Source of the DNA: an uncultured cyanobacterium
GTDB lineage: Bacteria; Cyanobacteriota; Cyanobacteriia; CAKZMO01
Assembly (NCBI GenBank): GCA_963719515.1
Contig: CAVRCJ010000011.1
Span: 96,001-160,000 of the forward strand
Direction of reading: 5' to 3'
DNA length: 64,000 nucleotides
Shown here piece after piece: positions 337 through 36,712 of the stretch (position 1 is the stretch's first letter; each line of letters begins with the position of its first letter). The position numbers and the translations under genes were made by a program. The notes under the pieces are model-generated. The model was given only the letters and a program-made list of their open reading frames with translations, was not told the origin of the DNA and made no database searches.

Positions 337-483
337 GATGAAAGGGACCAGTAGCTGTCGCTGACCTGCCTGCACAGTATACCGGCCGGCGATCGCCTAC
401 GGGAAATTCGAGCTTTTGGCGATCGCCAAAAGCTTGCTACTCGGCCTGCGGCTCGGCTGTGTCAGCGTCTTCCTAGGGCTGAT

Positions 484-879
484 TTAGCTACTAGACAGGA
501 AGCCCCGCGCTCTACCCGTCAGGGTGAGCGTCGGGATGAGAGTCGCGCTAGCCGAAGTGCGCCCGCAAAATGATGCACAGCGGATAGTGCGCTCAGCGCT
601 GAGGCTAGCAGTTGGTATGATAGAGATAGCAAGGTGATACACCCCGCAAAGAGTGTGACGGGCCCGTAGGCAAAAGCTGCAAGTCACCCGTTCCTCAGTT
701 TGCAAATGTATCTGCGACACATAGTGCGTATCCTCCCTCGCGGAGATGAAAATTCAAAACTCTGCCGTGGGGCATCAGGCGGAGTATAAACCTATCTCAG
801 GATATGTCTCGGCAATAGCTGGGAGTCACTGAGGAAGCCCGCGCTGTACAGCTTGCTGTCAGCGTCGGGAGGATGTCAC
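484..879 (+). mobile_element. Non-autonomous IS200/IS605-family derivative, copy 1 (TTAG at 484-487, ends TCAC at 879)
   Basis: Near-identical inverted copy at 4052-4446; both ends carry AAGCCC(C)GCGCT...AGCGTCGGGA hairpins like the tnpB element at 35242-36712; no transposase or tnpB ORF. Confidence 0.85.
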
Positions 880-924
880 TAGGACGCTTGCTATACCAGC
901 AAACGCAAGCCCCAATAGAGCAAG

Positions 925-4051: not shown

Positions 4052-4446
4052 GTGACATCCTCCCGACGCTGACAGCAAGCTGTACAGCGCGGGCTTCCTC
4101 AGTGACTCCCAGCTATTGCCGAGACATATCCTGAGATAGGTTTATACTCCGCCTGATGCCCCACGGCAGAGTTTTGAATTTTCATCTCCGCGAGGGAGGA
4201 TACGCACTATGTGTCGCAGATACATTTGCAAACTGAGGAACGGGTGACTTGCAGCTTTCGCCTACGGGCCCGTCACACTCTTTGCGGGGTGTATCACCTG
4301 CTATCTCTATCATACCAACTGCTAGCCTCAGCGCTGAGCGCACTATCGGCTGTGCATCATTTTGCGGGCGCACTTCGGCTAGCGCGACTCTCATCCCGAC
4401 GCTCACCCTGACGGGTAGAGCGCGGGGCTTCTCGTCTAGTCGCTAA
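4052..4446 (-). mobile_element. Non-autonomous IS200/IS605-family derivative, copy 2 (inverted relative to copy 1)
   Basis: Reverse complement matches 484-879 with about 6 differences, all in the left half; TTAG at left and TCAC at right. Confidence 0.85.
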
Positions 4447-13928: not shown

Positions 13929-15527
13929 TTGAGCGGCCAGACTGCCCATGTCTTCGTCAGCTACAAGCGCGGCGTGGAGCCAGATGAGCGGGTGGCCAAG
14001 GCGATTTACGAGGCGCTCTCGCCTCAGCATGAGGTGTTCATTGACCAGACGATGCCGGTGGGCACCCGGTGGATGGAGCGCATCGATGCGGAGATTCAGC
14101 GATCGCACTTTATGGTGGTGCTGCTGTCAGCGCATTCGGTGCAGAGCGAGATGGTGATCCTGGAGCTGGAGAAGGCGCAGCACAACGCGAGCCATGCGGG
14201 ACGACCTAAGCTGCTGCCGGTGCGGCTGGGGTATCGGGAGCCGTTTCAGTATCCGCTGAGCGAGTATTTGAACCCGATTAACTGGGCTTTTTGGCAAGAC
14301 GAGGGGGATACGGCGCGGCTGGTGCAGGAGCTGGAGGGGGCGATCGCGGGGCAGCCGCTCACCATTGAGACCCAGGCGGCGAAAGACGAGCTGGTGACGC
14401 CGGAGCCGGACGCGGAGCCTATTGAGGCCCCGCCGCCCCCCATCGCTCAGCCCCATCAAGCTAGAGCCCATCAAGCTAGGGCCCATCAAGCTAGGGGCCA
14501 TCAAGCCAAAGCCCCAGAAAAGCTGGAGCTGCCGGAAGGCACCATGACCGTGGAGTCGCAGTTTTACGTGGCGCGGCAGGCAGACCGCATTGCCCTAGAG
14601 ACCATTGGCGAACGGGGGGTGACGCTGACGATTAAAGGGGCGCGGCAGGTGGGCAAAAGCTCGCTGTTGATTCGGGTGATGGCGGCGGCGCGGCAGGCGG
14701 GAAAGCGGGTGGCGTTTCTGGATTTCCAGATGTTTGACAAGACCACGCTGCACAGCGCCGACGCGTTTTTCTATCAGTTTTGCCTGTGGCTGAGCGATGC
14801 GCTGGAGGTGGAGGACGAGGTGGACGCCTACTGGCAGCGCCCGGAGGGCAACCGCCAGCGCTGCACCCGCTATATGCGACGGCACATTTTGCCGAAGCTG
14901 ACCGGGTCGCTGGTGCTGGCCATGGATGAGGTGGAGAGCATTTTTGATACGCCGTTTCGCACGGATTTCTTTGGCATGCTGCGCAGCTGGCACAACCAGC
15001 GGGCCAGTAGCGACTCCTGGCGCAAGATCGACCTGGCGCTGGTGACCTCTACCGAACCGTATCAGCTGATTGACGACCTGAACCAGTCGCCCTTCAACGT
15101 GGGGGAGGTGCTGGATTTGGAGGATTTCTCTATGGCCCAGGTGCTGGAGCTAAACCAGCGCCACGGCGAGACGCTGACGCCCGCTCAGGCGCAGCAGCTG
15201 ATGGGGCTGGTGAACGGCCATCCGTATTTGGTGCGCAAGGCGCTGTATCTGGTAGCGCGGGGGCGGATGACGGCGGCAGAGCTGTTTGACCAGGCGGCGC
15301 AGGAGCGCGGCCCGTTTGGCGATCACCTACGCTATCACCTGTTTCGCGTTTACGATAAGCCGGAGCTGGTGGCGGCGCTGCTAAAAATCATTCGCCAGCG
15401 CAGCTGCCCGGATGAGCGGCTGTTTTTCCGGCTGCGGGGGGCGGGGCTGGTGCGGCGCGACGGCCAGGCTATTGCGCCTCGGTGTGAGCTGTATGGGATT
15501 TATTTTCAGGAGCATTTGCGTGGGTAA
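13929..15527 (+). CDS. TIR + AAA_35 (AAA-like) P-loop NTPase; probably the C-terminal part of a CHAT-TIR-AAA_35 gene
   Basis: VFVSYKR...FIDQ...VVLLS..S..SEMVILEL TIR; Walker A GARQVGKSS; Walker B LAMDE; SPFNVG; GHPYL; same frame as the CHAT C-half. Confidence 0.85.
   Translation: MSGQTAHVFVSYKRGVEPDERVAKAIYEALSPQHEVFIDQTMPVGTRWMERIDAEIQRSHFMVVLLSAHSVQSEMVILELEKAQHNASHAGRPKLLPVRLGYREPFQYPLSEYLNPINWAFWQDEGDTARLVQELEGAIAGQPLTIETQAAKDELVTPEPDAEPIEAPPPPIAQPHQARAHQARAHQARGHQAKAPEKLELPEGTMTVESQFYVARQADRIALETIGERGVTLTIKGARQVGKSSLLIRVMAAARQAGKRVAFLDFQMFDKTTLHSADAFFYQFCLWLSDALEVEDEVDAYWQRPEGNRQRCTRYMRRHILPKLTGSLVLAMDEVESIFDTPFRTDFFGMLRSWHNQRASSDSWRKIDLALVTSTEPYQLIDDLNQSPFNVGEVLDLEDFSMAQVLELNQRHGETLTPAQAQQLMGLVNGHPYLVRKALYLVARGRMTAAELFDQAAQERGPFGDHLRYHLFRVYDKPELVAALLKIIRQRSCPDERLFFRLRGAGLVRRDGQAIAPRCELYGIYFQEHLRG
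14452..14511 (+). repeat. 15-bp in-frame tandem repeat (AHQAR-like, 4 copies) in the TIR-AAA linker
   Basis: CCCATCAAGCTAG(A/G)G units. Confidence 0.85.
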
Positions 15528-18500
15528 GCCAAACCGCAATATCTACACCCCTGGAGGCACGGTGCAGGCAGGGCAGGGCATCTATTTAGAGCGGCAGGCC
15601 GACGCGCAGCTGCTGCAGCTTTGCCAGGAGGGGGTGTTTGCCTATGTGCTGACTTCGCGGCAGATGGGCAAGTCGAGCCTGATGGTGCATACGGCGCGGC
15701 GGCTGGCGACCGAAGGGGTGGTGACCCTAATTGTGGACCTGACGGATGTGGGGGTGCAGGATGTGACGGCGGATGCCTGGTATCGGGGCTTTTTGCTGGA
15801 GATTGAGGCGAAGCTGGAGTCGCAGGAGCGGTTTTTGGATACCGATGTGTATGCCTGGTGGGAGGCGCACCACTATTTGACGGTGTCGCAAAAGCTGTCG
15901 CGGTTTTTCCGCCATGTGCTGCTGGAGGAGGTGGAGGGGCCGGTGGTGGTGTTTGTGGATGAGATTGACACGACCTTGAGCCTGGATTTTACGGACGACT
16001 TTTTTATTACGATTCGCTCGTTTTATACGGCGAGGGCGCAGGATGCGGCGTTTCAGCGGCTGTCGTTTGTGCTGATTGGGGTAGCGACGCCGGGGGATTT
16101 GATTGTGGACTCGAAGCGAACGCCGTTTAATATTGGCCAGCGGGTGGAGCTGACGGATTTTGGCTATGGGGAGGCGCTGCCGCTGGCGGCGGGGCTAGCG
16201 CTGGGGGGGACGGCTCTGGCTGGAGACGGGCCTGGAGGGACAAGCGCAGCGGGGCGGGAGCGGGAGGTTTTTGAGCGGGTGCTGCACTGGACGGGGGGGC
16301 ATCCGTATTTGACGCAGCGGTTGTGCATTGAGCTGGCGCGGTATGGAGGTGGGGGTGAGCCGACTGGTCTTACCCCCCTTAGTCCCCCCTTAGAAGGTGT
16401 GATAGAGCCTACACAAGCTGGTTTTACCCCCTCTAACTCCCCCTTAGAAGGTGTGATAGAGCCTACACAAGCTGGTTTTACCCCCTCTAACTCCCCCTTG
16501 CTAAGGGGGAGAACTGGAGGCTTCCGCGCAGCGCGTCCGCAGGATGCAGGGGAGTTAGAGGGGGTGAACCCGAACGCTGAACTCTCGGCCAAAACCGTTG
16601 ACCAAGTTGTCAGCCGCACCTTCTTTGGTGAGAAGAGCGAGCAGGACAACAATCTGCAGTTTGTGCGGGATATGCTGACTACTCGATCGCCTAACGTGCT
16701 GGAGGGGCTGGCGATTTACCGGGCGGTTTGGCGGGGGCGGCGGCCCGTGGTGGATGAGGAGCAGTCGATTGTTAAGTCGCATTTGAAGCTGTCGGGGGGG
16801 GTGAAGCGGCAGGGGCAGCGGCTGGTGGTGCGCAATGAGATTTACCGGCGGGTGTTTGATGGGCGGTGGGTGCGGGAGCATTGGCCGGAGGGGGTGTGGG
16901 AGCGGCTGAGGCCGGCGATGCCGTTGATTGCGGGGCTGACGGTGGTGGCGCTGGGGATGAGCGGGCTGGCGGCCTATGCAGTGGGGCAGCGGAACCGGGC
17001 AGAGCAGCAGACGGCACTTTTAGAAGAGGCACTACTGCGGGAAGAAGAGCAGCGGGAGTTTGCCTTGAATAAGGCAGAAGAGGCCGAGGCAAATGCGAAA
17101 CAAGCCAGGCAGAACGAAGCAGAGGCGACGCGGCAATCAACGCGGGCTGAGAAAAATTTGAAAGACGCCCAACTGGCTCAGCAGCAGGCGGAAGCGGCGA
17201 AGCTGGCGGAGCAGGGGCAGCGGCAAGAGGCTGAAACACAAACGGCTATTGCGCAAGAACAAACCACAATTGCGCAGGAGCAAACCGTTTTGGCAGAGCA
17301 GCGGCTTGAGGAAGCAGATTCTGCAACGCTCTTGGCAAAGCAACGGTTGAGTGAAGCCGATGCGGCGAAGCTGCAGGCTGAACAAGAAAGCCGCATTTCG
17401 CTGGCGCGGCAGCTTGCGGCACAATCAGAATACTCGCGACGTCAGCGACTTGATCTGTTCCCTCGAAGCATCTTGCTGGCAGTCGAATCGATGAAGCGGC
17501 TGATGGACTCATCCACATCCACCGCAGACACCCACCAAGCGCTCCATAGCCTAAAAACCTTGCCCCCCAAAGCATCCCGCATTGCCCATGAGGGGGCTGT
17601 CTATGACGTGCGGTTTAGCCCCGACGGGCGCTACCTGGCAACCGGCAGTAGGGACAATACGGCGCGGGTGTGGGACGTTGCGGCAAACCAAGAGGTGGCC
17701 CGCATTGCCCATGAGGGGTGGGTCGTTGACGTGCGGTTTAGCCCCGACGGGCGCTACCTGGCAACCGGCAGTGAAGACGGTACGGCGCGGGTGTGGGACG
17801 TTGTGGCAAACCAAGAGGTGGCCCGCATTGCCCATGAGGGGTCGGTCGTTGACGTGCGCTTTAGCCCCGACGGGCGCTACCTGGCAACCGGCAGTGAAGA
17901 CGGTACGGCGCGGGTGTGGGACGTTACGGCAAACCAAGAGGTGGCCCGCATTGCCCATGAGGGGTGGGTCGTTGACGTGCGGTTTAGCCCCGACGGGCGC
18001 TACCTGGCAACCGGCAGTTTGGACAATACGGCGCGGGTGTGGGACGTTGCGGCAAACCAAGAGGTGGCCCGCATTGCCCATGAGGGGTCGGTCTATGACG
18101 TGCGGTTTAGCCCCGACGGGCGCTACCTGGCAACCGGCAGTGAAGACGGTACGGCGCGGGTGTGGGACGTTGTGGCAAACCAAGAGGTGGCCCGCATTGC
18201 CCATGAGGGGTGGGTCGTTGACGTGCGCTTTAGCCCCGACGGGCGCTACCTGGCAACCGGCAGTGAAGACGGTACGGCGCGGGTGTGGGACGTTGCGGCA
18301 AACCAAGAGGTGGCCCGCATTGCCGAGGGGTCTGTCGTTGACGTGCGGTTTAGCCCCGACGGGCGCTACCTGGCAACCGGCAGTAGGGACAATACGGCGC
18401 GGGTGTGGGACGTTGCGGCAAACCAAGAGGTGGCCCGCATTGCCCATGAGGGGTGGGTCGTTGACGTGCGGTTTAGCCCCGACGGGCGCTACCTGGCAAC

Positions 18501-19800
18501 CGGCAGTTTGGACAATACGGCGCGGGTGTGGGACGTTGCGGCAAACCAAGAGGTGGCCCGCATTGCCCATGAGGGGTCGGTCGTTGACGTGCGCTTTAGT
18601 CCCGACGGGCGCTACCTGGCAACCGGCAGTAGGGACAGCACCGCCCGGGTGTGGGACATTGCGGCAAACCCAGAAGTCGCCCGCATTGCCCATGAGGGGT
18701 ATGTCGAAGACGTGCGCTTTAGCCCTGACGGGCGCTACCTGGCAACCGGCAGTAGGGACAATACGGCGCGGGTGTGGGACGTTGCGGCAAACCAAGAGGT
18801 GGCCCGCATTGCCCATGAGGGGTGGGTCGTTGACGTGCGGTTTAGCCCCGACGGGCGCTACCTGGCAACCGGCAGTTTGGACAATACGGCGCGGGTGTGG
18901 GACGTTGCGGCAAACCAAGAGGTGGCCCGCATTGCCCATGAGGGGTCGGTCTATGACGTGCGGTTTAGCCCCGACGGGCGCTACCTGGCAACCGGCAGTA
19001 GTGACAATACGGCGCGGGTGTGGGACATCGCGGCAAACCAAGAGGTGGCCCGCATTGCCCATGAGGGGTGGGTCGTTGACGTGCGGTTTAGCCCCGACGG
19101 GCGCTACCTGGCAACCGGCAGTAGTGACAATACGGCGCGGGTGTGGGACATCGCGGCAAACCAAGAAGTCGCCCGCATTGCCCATGAGGGGTATGTCCTT
19201 GACGTGCGGTTTAGCCCCGACGGGCGCTACCTGGCAACCGGCAGTTTGGACAATACGGCGCGGGGGTGGGACGTTGCGGCAAACCAAGAGGTGGCCCGCA
19301 TTGCCCATGAGGGGTCGGTCTATGACGTGCGCTTTAGCCCTGACGGGCGCTACCTGGCAACCGGCAGTGAGGACAACACGGCGCGGGTGTGGGACGTTGC
19401 GGCAAACCAAGAGGTGGCCCGCATTGCCCATGAGGGGAATGTCCGTGACGTGCGCTTTAGCCCCGACGGGCGCTACCTGGCAACCGGCAGTTGGGACAGC
19501 ACGGCGCGGGTGTGGGACGTTGCGGCAAACCAAGAGGTGGCCCGCATTCCGCATGATGAGAGCGTAGGAAGCGTGCAGTTTCACCCCACAAAACCCTACC
19601 TGCTCACCCGCAGCGGCAACGTCGCCGAAGTCTGGATGCTCGACCCCAACGACCTGATGGCCGAAGCCTGCCGCCGCCTCACTCGCAACCTCACCCTTGA
19701 CGAATGGCGACAGTACCTCGGCGACGAACCCTACGAGGCCACCTGCCCCGACCTCCCCCGCCTCGATCGCGAAACTGAAGCCCCAACCGCAAGTCGCTGA
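15520..19800 (+). CDS. AAA_35 NTPase - TM helix - coiled coil - WD40 repeat protein
   Basis: GTG at 15520 after CAGGAG, overlapping the upstream stop; YTPGGTV, TSRQMGKSS, VFVDEID, TPFNIG, GGHPYLTQ; TM LIAGLTVVALGMSGLAAYAV; A/E/Q-rich coil; 16+1 WD40 repeats; ACRRLTRNLT..EW..Y tail. Confidence 0.92.
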   Translation: MGKPNRNIYTPGGTVQAGQGIYLERQADAQLLQLCQEGVFAYVLTSRQMGKSSLMVHTARRLATEGVVTLIVDLTDVGVQDVTADAWYRGFLLEIEAKLESQERFLDTDVYAWWEAHHYLTVSQKLSRFFRHVLLEEVEGPVVVFVDEIDTTLSLDFTDDFFITIRSFYTARAQDAAFQRLSFVLIGVATPGDLIVDSKRTPFNIGQRVELTDFGYGEALPLAAGLALGGTALAGDGPGGTSAAGREREVFERVLHWTGGHPYLTQRLCIELARYGGGGEPTGLTPLSPPLEGVIEPTQAGFTPSNSPLEGVIEPTQAGFTPSNSPLLRGRTGGFRAARPQDAGELEGVNPNAELSAKTVDQVVSRTFFGEKSEQDNNLQFVRDMLTTRSPNVLEGLAIYRAVWRGRRPVVDEEQSIVKSHLKLSGGVKRQGQRLVVRNEIYRRVFDGRWVREHWPEGVWERLRPAMPLIAGLTVVALGMSGLAAYAVGQRNRAEQQTALLEEALLREEEQREFALNKAEEAEANAKQARQNEAEATRQSTRAEKNLKDAQLAQQQAEAAKLAEQGQRQEAETQTAIAQEQTTIAQEQTVLAEQRLEEADSATLLAKQRLSEADAAKLQAEQESRISLARQLAAQSEYSRRQRLDLFPRSILLAVESMKRLMDSSTSTADTHQALHSLKTLPPKASRIAHEGAVYDVRFSPDGRYLATGSRDNTARVWDVAANQEVARIAHEGWVVDVRFSPDGRYLATGSEDGTARVWDVVANQEVARIAHEGSVVDVRFSPDGRYLATGSEDGTARVWDVTANQEVARIAHEGWVVDVRFSPDGRYLATGSLDNTARVWDVAANQEVARIAHEGSVYDVRFSPDGRYLATGSEDGTARVWDVVANQEVARIAHEGWVVDVRFSPDGRYLATGSEDGTARVWDVAANQEVARIAEGSVVDVRFSPDGRYLATGSRDNTARVWDVAANQEVARIAHEGWVVDVRFSPDGRYLATGSLDNTARVWDVAANQEVARIAHEGSVVDVRFSPDGRYLATGSRDSTARVWDIAANPEVARIAHEGYVEDVRFSPDGRYLATGSRDNTARVWDVAANQEVARIAHEGWVVDVRFSPDGRYLATGSLDNTARVWDVAANQEVARIAHEGSVYDVRFSPDGRYLATGSSDNTARVWDIAANQEVARIAHEGWVVDVRFSPDGRYLATGSSDNTARVWDIAANQEVARIAHEGYVLDVRFSPDGRYLATGSLDNTARGWDVAANQEVARIAHEGSVYDVRFSPDGRYLATGSEDNTARVWDVAANQEVARIAHEGNVRDVRFSPDGRYLATGSWDSTARVWDVAANQEVARIPHDESVGSVQFHPTKPYLLTRSGNVAEVWMLDPNDLMAEACRRLTRNLTLDEWRQYLGDEPYEATCPDLPRLDRETEAPTASR
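16371..16570. repeat. In-frame MITE-like palindromic insertion with a 54-bp tandem duplication inside the AAA_35 domain
   Basis: GGTTTTACCCCCTCTAACTCCCC / GGGGAGTTAGAGGGGGTGAACC inverted repeats; duplicated 18-aa PLEGVIEPTQAGFTPSNS. Confidence 0.8.
17581..19545 (+). repeat. Array of 16 near-identical 123-bp WD40 coding repeats (repeat 7 lacks one codon)
   Basis: IAHEGxVxDVRFSPDGRYLATGSxDxTARVWDVAANQEVAR x16, near-identical at DNA level. Confidence 0.97.
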
Positions 19801-35241: not shown

Positions 35242-36712
35242 TTAGCTAATTCGTGAAAGCCCCGCGCTGTATGCGCAGCATCAGCGTCGGGATGCAAGCG
35301 AGCGAGTCGCAGACGAGCAATTCTAGGGAGTAACACAACCCCTCCTAAATCTTGCTATAATTGGTACATGCTTACCTTGAACTACTCCTACCGAATCTAT
35401 CCAAGCCTTGAGCAGGAAGCCCGCATGGTGACGTGGCTTGAGACCTGTCGCGGCGTCTACAATTACGCCCTGAGGGAGCGCAAGGACTGGATAAAGTCGA
35501 GAAGCTGTCAGCTCAACGCTTGCTCGCTGCAATCGGAGTACATCATTCCAGCAGACGCGTCTTACCCCAGCTACTACGCTCAAAAGCGATCGCTGACCGC
35601 TGCCAAAAAGCAGTTGCCGCATCTCAAGGACGTGCAATCCCAGGTGCTTCAGGACGTGATAGGACGGGTGGAATCGGCGTTTGCTGCCAGGAAGGAGCGA
35701 GGTCACGGTTTCCCACGCTTTAAGAAGTTTGGGCAGTATCGCTCGTTTCTCTTTCCGCAGTTCAAGGAAAACCCGGTGACGGGTAGCCAAATCAAGCTGC
35801 CAAAGCTGGGAGAGATGCGCATTGTGCTGCATCGTCCCATCCCTGATGGGTTTGCTGTGAAGACGGTGCGCATCATCAAGAAGCATTCGGGGTGGTACGC
35901 TACCCTTTGCATTCAAGCCGATGTCAACGTGCCTGATGCTGTTCCTAGTGGGGCAAGTGTTGGGATTGATGTTGGGCTTGAGTATTTCCTGTCCACTTCC
36001 AACGGTTTGCAGGTCAAGCGACCTCGCTTTTCGGGTAAGCTGCACCGCAAGCTTGAATTGACGAGCGACCCCGCGCCGTCGCACGGCGCTAGGGAACGCG
36101 CGAGTTGCTGCAACGCAGGCTGAAGAACAAGCAAAAGGGGTCGAATAACCGCGCCAAGCTGATACGGAGGATTGGACGGGTGCATGAGCAGATAGCAGCC
36201 TGTCGCCTTGACTGGCAATTCAAGCTGGCCCATAAGCTCTGTGACTATGCCCAGATGATATTTGTGGAAGACATCGACTTCCGCATCATGGCAAAAGGGA
36301 TGCTGGGTAAGCACACCCTGGATGCTGGTCTGGGGCAGTTCGTCAACCAGGTGCTGCCATGGGTGTGCTTCAAGCGTGGTGTCTACTACGGCAAGGTTGA
36401 CCCCTACCGCACCTCTCAGGAATGCCCTGATTGTGGTGCTGCGGTCAAAAAGTCGCTGAGTGATAGGGTTCATCAGTGTCATAGCTGTGGGTCGGTCAAG
36501 CCGAGAGATATAGCTGCTGCCCAAGTCATCAACGCCCGTGGTCTTTCGGGTGTTCAAATTGTCTGTGGAGCCGAGGTAGCGGGGATGTGGGAAACCATAT
36601 CTAGCCAACTGGCTGTGTTCGCGCAGCGTGCGTGTAACGCGAAGCAGGAAACTCATCGGGCGACCGATGAAGCCCGCGCTCTATCCGTAGGATGAGCGTC
36701 GGGAGTATTCAC
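35242..36712 (+). mobile_element. IS200/IS605-family tnpB-only (IS1341-like) element
   Basis: TTAG at 35242-35245, left hairpin AAGCCCCGCGCT..AGCGTCGGGA, tnpB, right hairpin GAAGCCCGCGCT..AGCGTCGGGAG ending TCAC. Confidence 0.9.
35368..36695 (+). pseudogene. tnpB: RNA-guided endonuclease TnpB, frameshifted by a 47-nt insertion (36061-36107)
   Basis: YSYRIYP, GFPRFK, GIDVG, IFVED, CPDC/CHSC, RDIAAA; removing the insert restores KLELLQRRLK; TGnTATAAT 6 nt before the ATG (leaderless). Confidence 0.92.

Follow-up and report, generated by a model that had tools for sequence, protein, structure and literature searches.

A gene-less IS200/IS605 guide-RNA element of a cyanobacterial genome with a putatively selected RNA domain upstream of its omegaRNA scaffold

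Positions 484-879 of the 64,000-nucleotide stretch of cyanobacterial DNA analyzed here (the window) hold one of 53 copies of a protein-free IS200/IS605 mini-element (PATE) found in the same genome (G000). Judging from sequence comparison, this PATE is probably a stand-alone gene for a TnpB guide RNA that has its own promoter and, on its 5' side, an additional RNA domain under selection, which we call motif A. Guide-only PATEs that are served in trans have already been published, as the accessible text of three reports makes clear (10.1101/2023.03.14.532601; PMC7290912; PMC10691335). Hence, it is motif A, not the guide-only PATE as such, that is the new part here. A literature search that included the letters of the motif found no description of it, within a coverage that excludes most subscription papers and supplements, a possible home of motif catalogues.

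A BLAST search of the whole genome, which the first-pass annotation of the window had proposed for finding the copy number and the parent, returned 53 full-length copies of 395 to 397 nt that are 96 to 100% identical and comprise 33 distinct sequences. All of them start at TTAG, preceded by a T in 47 of the 53 (TTTAG; window positions 483-487, + strand), and all of them end in TCAC (876-879). By IS200/IS605 convention, the target motif is placed immediately outside the left end and also serves as the TnpB TAM. The flanks are unrelated, with a different right flank for every copy, and target duplication is absent. The left end (488-555, + strand), with a subterminal hairpin at 503-535, was recognized by its similarity to the left ends of longer resident elements: positions 1 to 72 of the mini-element share 94 to 96% identity with the 1487-nt tnpB elements at their left end, and positions 1 to 64 are 89 to 92% identical to the tnpA+tnpB elements. 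Likewise, the last 85 nt are 85 to 88% identical to resident tnpB elements of the 1487-nt family, and the subterminal hairpins at both ends are thus shared with a coding relative. The element itself contains no protein gene, only a 35-codon tail of tnpB without a conserved start. We regard it as very probably a PATE with an omegaRNA scaffold, in agreement with the earlier proposal of a non-autonomous IS200/IS605 mini-element.

The features named in that annotation are all in place: TTAG at 484-487, the left hairpin, TGGTATGAT at 613-621, the right hairpin at 838-869, and the terminal TCAC. Its comparison of two copies, said to be identical over the right ~200 nt and to differ in the left half, is accurate for this pair; the second copy in the window (4052-4446, - strand, with motif A at 4218-4296) differs at 489, 497, 498, 582, 631 (a 1-nt deletion), and 672 and is identical over 673-879. 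However, the genome holds 53 copies, among which the right half varies slightly, for example at 809, where T and C alternate (9 of 53 copies). The supposed frameshifting indel is real, being the deletion at 631, but it shifts no conserved ORF. Between the left end and the promoter-like box lies a spacer hairpin (556-612, + strand) that by eye resembles the spacers of other mini families. No empty donor site was found within G000, and none was identified by comparison with four genomes of the same genus, in which these intergenic regions are too diverged. The nearest downstream ORF is on the same strand in 37 of the 53 copies versus 55% of intergenic TTTAG sites (p = 0.04), and the upstream ORF is on the same strand in 31 of 53 (p = 0.05), two tests that rely on crude ORF calls and that we treat as weak.

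Nineteen longer elements in G000 pair the same left and right ends as the mini-element, so that guide-only copies outnumber paired cognate tnpB elements by 53 to 19. Sixteen of these parents carry tnpB only and measure about 1487 nt (one is 1616 nt), and three, of about 1800 nt, carry tnpB together with a match to the Y1 transposase (tnpA); the Y1 transposase matches in the genome include all three. An ORF of 391 to 414 amino acids with the three RuvC acidic motifs (D/E/D) is kept in 17 of the 19, the other two being frameshifted, and a Pfam scan of one parent tnpB returned OrfB_IS605, Cas12f1-like_TNB, and HTH_OrfB_IS605. G000 thus appears to encode a compatible, catalytically intact TnpB that shares TTAG and the right end with the mini-element, and the presence in trans of cognate TnpB and TnpA is supported. 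Of separate note, the 1487-nt tnpB elements (L038, G000:C3:50422-51908) have an open frame on the - strand at element positions 99-380, where tnpA would lie; the minis lack it.

The scaffold and right end together occupy 757-879 (+ strand), about 123 nt that are homologous to the 3' ends of the 19 resident tnpB elements, and the frame at 725-829 is identical to the TnpB C terminus at 18 of 35 residues (51%; E value, 5e-8). Its structure comprises a stem at 759-766/778-785 (ACTCTGCC / GGCGGAGT), which had been pointed out before, a second stem at 796-800/829-833, the right hairpin at 838-869, and a pseudoknot between the first hairpin loop (771-776) and the last bases before the guide (872-877), all on the + strand. 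In an alignment of ten scaffolds, from two tnpB genes and eight minis, 11 of the 22 pairs tested show double changes. In the pseudoknot, three pairs never vary, and one is changed from A-U to G-C in three sequences; four of its six pairs hold in at least nine of the ten sequences, and the two flanking pairs hold in just six and two of the ten. The covarying stems and the pseudoknot support the earlier view that the right end holds an omegaRNA scaffold. A pattern made from the scaffold matched in three named cyanobacterial records.

By analogy with published TnpB biology (accessible text of PMC10691335), the flank at 880-895 (+ strand) would form the guide of the window copy. It had been suggested that every insertion acquires a new flank-derived guide, and indeed the flank differs at all 53 sites. 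None of the 53 guides has a TTAG-adjacent match of at least 12 nt in G000, where about 0.5 would be expected by chance; at 10 nt, 3 of 53 have one (2.2 expected). The absence of targets is as expected if the only targets are emptied donor sites, and chance likewise predicts about 0.5. We consider it reasonably likely that the window element is expressed and loaded by TnpB in G000. Two further observations concern scaffolds. In all minis that were aligned together, the first scaffold stem is longer than in the two tnpB genes, and a linker resembling TATAAA is present that those genes lack. In addition, ultra-short elements of about 95 nt follow TTTAG in G050, G022, and G075 (L293, L294, L296, L298, L299, L302, and L305); they have no left hairpin and are reduced to the right hairpin and the 3' half of the type II scaffold.

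Upstream of motif A, an extended -10-like box, TGGTATGAT (613-621, + strand), would place the start of transcription near 627-628. The claim of an extended -10 promoter stands in so far as the box is present and unchanged in 52 of the 53 copies, the exception reading TATACT, which still conforms to TAnnnT. A strict sigma-70 scan, however, called no promoter on the + strand of the element, and its one site was on the - strand; the + strand call depends on an extended -10 without a -35. Boxes of the form nGnYAnnnT recur upstream of the core in the homologues, at 47 to 51 nt for types I and III and at 77 to 79 nt for type II; those in G104 and G131 were assigned by eye. The comparison drawn earlier with a tnpB element at 35 kb is apt with respect to the similar placement of the box, but that element belongs to another IS family, with a different left end and scaffold. 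It lies at 35242-36712 of the window (+ strand), is apparently frameshifted (ORFs 35368-36123 and 36105-36695), and has the left end of mini family F4.

About 200 nt of the mini body have no counterpart in the parents. When 556-745 was aligned on both strands with one tnpB-only and one tnpA+tnpB parent, it scored no better than shuffled sequence (97 to 193 of 200 shuffles scored as well). No frame is conserved in the core, which contains a stop or a frameshift in 4 of 10 homologues, and a Pfam search of four frames of the element gave no match at an E value of <0.1. The body therefore does not align as simple decayed tnpB or tnpA at the DNA or the protein level, the outcome that would have spoken against the first-pass reading. 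A decayed tnpB start at 628-660 was considered and rejected given the lack of parent similarity, of a conserved frame, and of a Pfam match; a conserved peptide in the core was rejected because its frames are broken and Pfam has no match.

Motif A (635-713, + strand), as delimited by covariance models and homologues, folds into a single long irregular hairpin of about 80 nt with four to five short helices: P1 (636-641/707-712), P2-P3 (around 646-653/694-706), P4 (657-659/683-685), and P5 (669-671/676-678), interrupted by conserved internal loops (CCCGUA / GCAA / CCCGUU). It is followed by a linker (714-756, + strand) with two small predicted hairpins and no variable column in the 53 copies; by eye, a CCUCC-loop-GGAG hairpin recurs in most homologues. 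Across 17 homologues, 94.6% of cells are paired and 12 of 21 pairs show double changes, a result that none of 500 shuffles matched; slid controls gave 33 to 50% paired. These homologues represent three lineages only, so that the pair counts overstate the number of independent events, and the alignments (A5, A8, and A9) were fitted to the covariance model. In an unfitted MAFFT alignment of ten sequences, the cells-paired score was again reached in 0 of 500 shuffles, and 4 of 14 pairs showed double changes, a count that 42 of 500 shuffles reached. The double changes are confined to P1-P3; P4 and P5 are nearly invariant, have none, and are given another register by RNAalifold. The G002 copy combines a double change in P1 with a paired double insertion in P2, and one-sided changes lead to or from G-U pairs on the + strand. 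In 13 homologues, 24 of 81 columns are invariant, largely at loop positions. Folding stability is no better than that of shuffles (+ strand z scores of -1.8 to +0.1) or of the reverse complement, and no covarying pseudoknot was detected inside motif A. No Rfam family matched the element at the gathering score, and at an E value of ≤10 the window copy and the G084 homologue gave only unrelated matches at chance level; the covariance models of self-cleaving ribozymes, HEARO, and group I and II introns did not match. We think it very likely, on this comparative evidence, that motif A is a selected RNA structure, which agrees with the first-pass suggestion of a new RNA domain in the 5' body.

Motif A is rare and patchy in its distribution. 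By BLAST, the whole element was found in 1 of 60 relatives (G002, 93%), and its first 298 nt were found in another (G004, 86%), where the match is cut by the end of the contig. A first covariance model, built from G000, G002, and G004, located the core in six further genomes, which belong to four other families; refined models added three and then another three, to a total of 15 genomes in 5 families with 23 places outside G000. We call the motif rare and patchy on the basis of tallies of 9 of 150 relatives, 2 of 57 in one family (one by chance), 5 of 101 (one by chance), and 7 of 150, from samples that overlap one another; searches of the "relatives of G022" and "class" samples, largely the same genomes, added nothing. 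The exact core pattern occurred only in G000 and G050 among 401 genomes of the phylum. Core-pattern matches in viral sequences numbered 0; a looser pattern had at least 120 there, of which 80 were examined and none was element-like beyond the pattern itself. A pattern scan of metagenomes gave two matches, both due to chance and inside coding DNA, and a plasmid collection contained no match to the body and one to the right end. Weak model matches in unrelated DNA (L218, L258, L338, and L342) were dropped before counting.

In G000, the final model has exactly 53 matches, which are the 53 minis, and the four matches that turned up once the last model was complete are gene-less minis without exception. 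At all 19 inspected places of the 23 outside G000 (4 of 8 in G084), there is no tnpB gene, an omegaRNA-type scaffold, truncated in G004, comes after motif A, and the core has a -10-like box 47 to 79 nt before it. Sixteen of the 19 have a recognizable left end; in G075, G104, and one G131 copy, it has degenerated or is absent. Motif A was found in none of the 15 tnpB loci of G022, G075, and G084 and in neither of the two G000 parents tested. The domain is joined to different scaffolds. The inner core is 75 to 87% identical between three lineages, with the upstream DNA at shuffle level (46 to 51%), and scaffold identity between types is 76% (I-III), 50% (III-II), and 48% (I-II). Type III has a core closer to type II and a scaffold closer to type I, a discordance that points to an exchange of modules. 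For the type II scaffold, neither 15 tnpB loci nor 9 scaffold-matching loci included a close tnpB parent. Of five genomes with motif A that were tested for the TnpB zinc-finger domain, three gave no match (G050, G104, and G131); these three are 85 to 99% complete and fragmented. The insertion site shared by G104 and G131 was considered as a sign of domestication and dropped, as the flanks are 99% identical.

Comparison with known systems sets motif A apart in several ways. According to the accessible text of Meers et al. (10.1101/2023.03.14.532601), the PATE-like elements of Geobacillus stearothermophilus are likewise protein-free, retain both ends, and are proposed to move by TnpA and to be served by TnpB in trans, but no internal promoter or separate 5' RNA domain is described there. 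The stand-alone omegaRNAs of OMEGA systems (PMC10691335) are also mobilized guide loci that lack both effector and transposase and reportedly function in trans with effectors that are compatible; their biological role and their biogenesis are called unknown, and the available part of that report mentions no accessory 5' domain, in contrast to the window family. The ends-only PATEs of PMC7290912, as far as its accessible portion describes them, are similarly short and non-coding and consist of a left end, the last part of tnpB, and a right end; the 271-nt example is a simple deletion product, unlike the window mini with its parentless 200 nt. For ISDra2 TnpB (PMC10097598, accessible text), the omegaRNA scaffold is of similar length (116 nt versus about 123 nt here), overlaps the C-terminal frame of tnpB, and has the same pseudoknot topology as the window scaffold, but its 5' region belongs to the tnpB coding sequence and is both disordered and dispensable, whereas the mini has a conserved non-coding fold. 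IStrons, which combine a group I intron with IS605/IS607 (PMC13565253, accessible text), also place a structured RNA 5' of the omegaRNA in one IS transcript, with competing folds; motif A differs in its size of about 80 nt, in lacking a group I match in Rfam, and in lying behind an internal promoter-like box and not at the 5' junction.

In the reading that we favor, drawn largely from published biology, TnpA from the ~1800-nt elements would move the mini as single-stranded DNA to TTAG sites, the -10 box would drive an untranslated RNA of ~250 nt that reads through TCAC into the flank, and TnpB from the 1487-nt family would bind the scaffold in trans. TnpB might then cut the empty site left by excision, with recombination restoring the element, as in the model of Meers et al. 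(accessible text of 10.1101/2023.03.14.532601). Motif A may mature or protect the 5' end of the guide until TnpB loads and trims it, a function in guide maturation or stability that we propose tentatively. Given that motif A seems to be selected as RNA and accompanies only gene-less copies, it may help a guide that lacks an mRNA context to mature or survive, a job that would be needed only because no translated tnpB mRNA carries such a guide at its tail. TnpB can trim its own RNA (PMC10278001) and the 5' region is dispensable for ISDra2 TnpB, so that, as far as the accessible text of these reports goes, a leader is not obviously needed. An undescribed self-cleaving ribozyme, which would be one particular form of such a maturation function and would free the guide RNA from a primary or read-through transcript, might explain the small size, the short helices, and the many invariant internal-loop positions, as well as a stability too ordinary for a simple blocking hairpin and a fixed place 5' of the guide. 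A different compact fold occupies the same slot in a second mini family; ribozymes replace one another in this manner in other mobile elements. On the other hand, no Rfam ribozyme matches even at an E value of ≤10, no covarying pseudoknot is found inside motif A, and TnpB can process its own 5' end (accessible text of PMC10278001); we judge a ribozyme to be unlikely. Two words, ACCCG..AGGC and GCAAGUCC, are by eye shared with a twister-sister sequence (PMC6101554), but this candidate was rejected for want of the L1 3' strand (the C-A cleavage strand), a P1 partner, and an Rfam match. Alternatively, motif A might form the sensing half of a switch, in which 691-699 invades the scaffold stem at 828-836 and keeps the guide inactive until the fold changes in response to a ligand, a protein, or TnpB. 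The two segments had been annotated as a clear pairing and are complementary as described (TTCCTCAGT at 691-699 and ACTGAGGAA at 828-836), but every homologue uses 691-699 as the 3' strand of its local P2-P3 helix, and only in one lineage does the long-range helix reach significance. There, in G000 and G002, the match is a perfect 9-bp complement (reached by 0 to 1 and 2 to 3 of 500 shuffles, respectively; a 9-bp complement arises somewhere in 5.5% of shuffled bodies), and the forced fold, which excludes the scaffold stem at 796-800/829-833, is just 1.2 and 5.2 kcal/mol above the minimum. Its mean predicted probability is 0.17 over 51 of the 53 copies and exceeds 0.1 in 22, in 8 of 12 homologues the right hairpin begins 4 to 10 nt after the best partner of the arm, and a cis-inhibitory complementary region is described for AmaTnpB mRNA (accessible text of PMC10278001). 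Against this, the pairing is not significant in any type II or III homologue (22 to 364 of 500 shuffles), is 2.5 to 14.5 kcal/mol uphill in type II, and has its best partner elsewhere in the three held-out homologues that could be scored; moreover, the UUUCC of the arm is already constrained by local GGAG pairing and will match any purine tract. We therefore treat 691-699/828-836 as a possible lineage-specific alternative fold, not as conserved architecture, and a switch as improbable.

It is also conceivable that the PATE carries motif A as an independent cargo RNA with a regulatory or protein-binding function, and that guiding TnpB is a side role or one that many hosts have lost. Between lineages, the core is more strongly conserved than the scaffold, it persists with decayed or unrecognizable ends (G610, G075, G104, and G131), and it occurs in the three genomes in which the TnpB domain was not found. 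Yet motif A is never away from an omegaRNA scaffold at the 19 inspected outside places, the scaffold pseudoknot is kept with compensation, and the genomes without a TnpB match are fragmented, repeats often being unassembled in such cases; we hold cargo to be decidedly unlikely. Finally, the element might be an ordinary internally deleted IS, its body being decayed or captured DNA kept by recent descent or a fold of single-stranded DNA used in transposition. High copy number needs only ends and TnpA, the folding z scores are unremarkable, and the 53 copies are too young to show selection, the 79-nt core having 8 variable columns, a level that is not below that of the spacer. This explanation is very improbable in our view, in light of a body (556-745) without similarity to either kind of parent, a Pfam match, or a conserved frame, a core that is conserved while flanking parts are at shuffle level, and compensatory changes that include the paired double insertion in G002, with one-sided changes involving G-U pairs on the + strand. 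Returning to a selected 5' domain on a guide-RNA gene, the family offers a direct handle on the role and biogenesis of stand-alone omegaRNAs, with 53 natural guides, a putative cognate TnpB, and an 80-nt domain specific to gene-less copies among the elements tested. Should motif A prove to be a ribozyme or a switch, it would add an RNA class and make guide-only transposons evolved RNA genes, not just deletion debris, and it could improve the expression of TnpB guides in trans. If motif A has no measurable effect, what remains is a thoroughly documented PATE.

Other gene-less families in G000 have the same layout, namely, F2 (six copies, TTAA), F3 (two full copies and one partial), and F4 (18 copies by BLAST). 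F3 and F4 carry a different fold, motif B, between the -10 box and the scaffold, which is shared with minis of G096 and G111 (G000:C3:734706-735158 [L040], C4:102376 [L036], and C1:7544 [L037]; L277, L278, and L284). It consists of two near-invariant blocks of 17 to 18 nt around a variable hairpin, in a region about 71% identical overall; five sequences contain no double changes, leaving its structure without covariation support, and no Rfam family matched, hatchet included. A hatchet ribozyme was rejected for motif B, since nine letters are shared with the hatchet of PMC6101554 but the conserved UGGG segment (PMC6561176, accessible text) is lacking. A more general proposal would be that gene-less guide transposons of cyanobacteria have an interchangeable slot between promoter and omegaRNA for compact catalytic or sensing RNAs and that motifs A and B might represent a new ribozyme or switch class that matures or gates a guide for TnpB in trans, which we consider unlikely. 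F2 shares a 28-nt 5' word with the window family (1 of 500 shuffles), and model R2 finds no motif A in F2.

Several minor observations remain. By eye, F2 (L033, G000:C10:332120-332545; L034, C7:44747-45174) resembles the window family in the layout of the outer stem, not in the inner core, and its scaffold gives a weak RAGATH-18 score (E value, 0.71). Gene-less minis with a -10 box and unrelated 5' bodies of their own occur at L025:1480-1915 (G008) and L084:1-470. At G000:C3:734219-735158, an F4 mini and an F1 mini point the same way, separated by about 90 nt, such that read-through from F4 would enter the left end of F1. Within the window, a glutamine (glnA) riboswitch (RF01739, 49 bits) is predicted at 1261-1365 on the - strand, upstream of a short frame that ends near the right flank of the element, and about 17 repeats of 123 nt (17453-19730) lie inside an ORF of 1462 codons (15412-19800).
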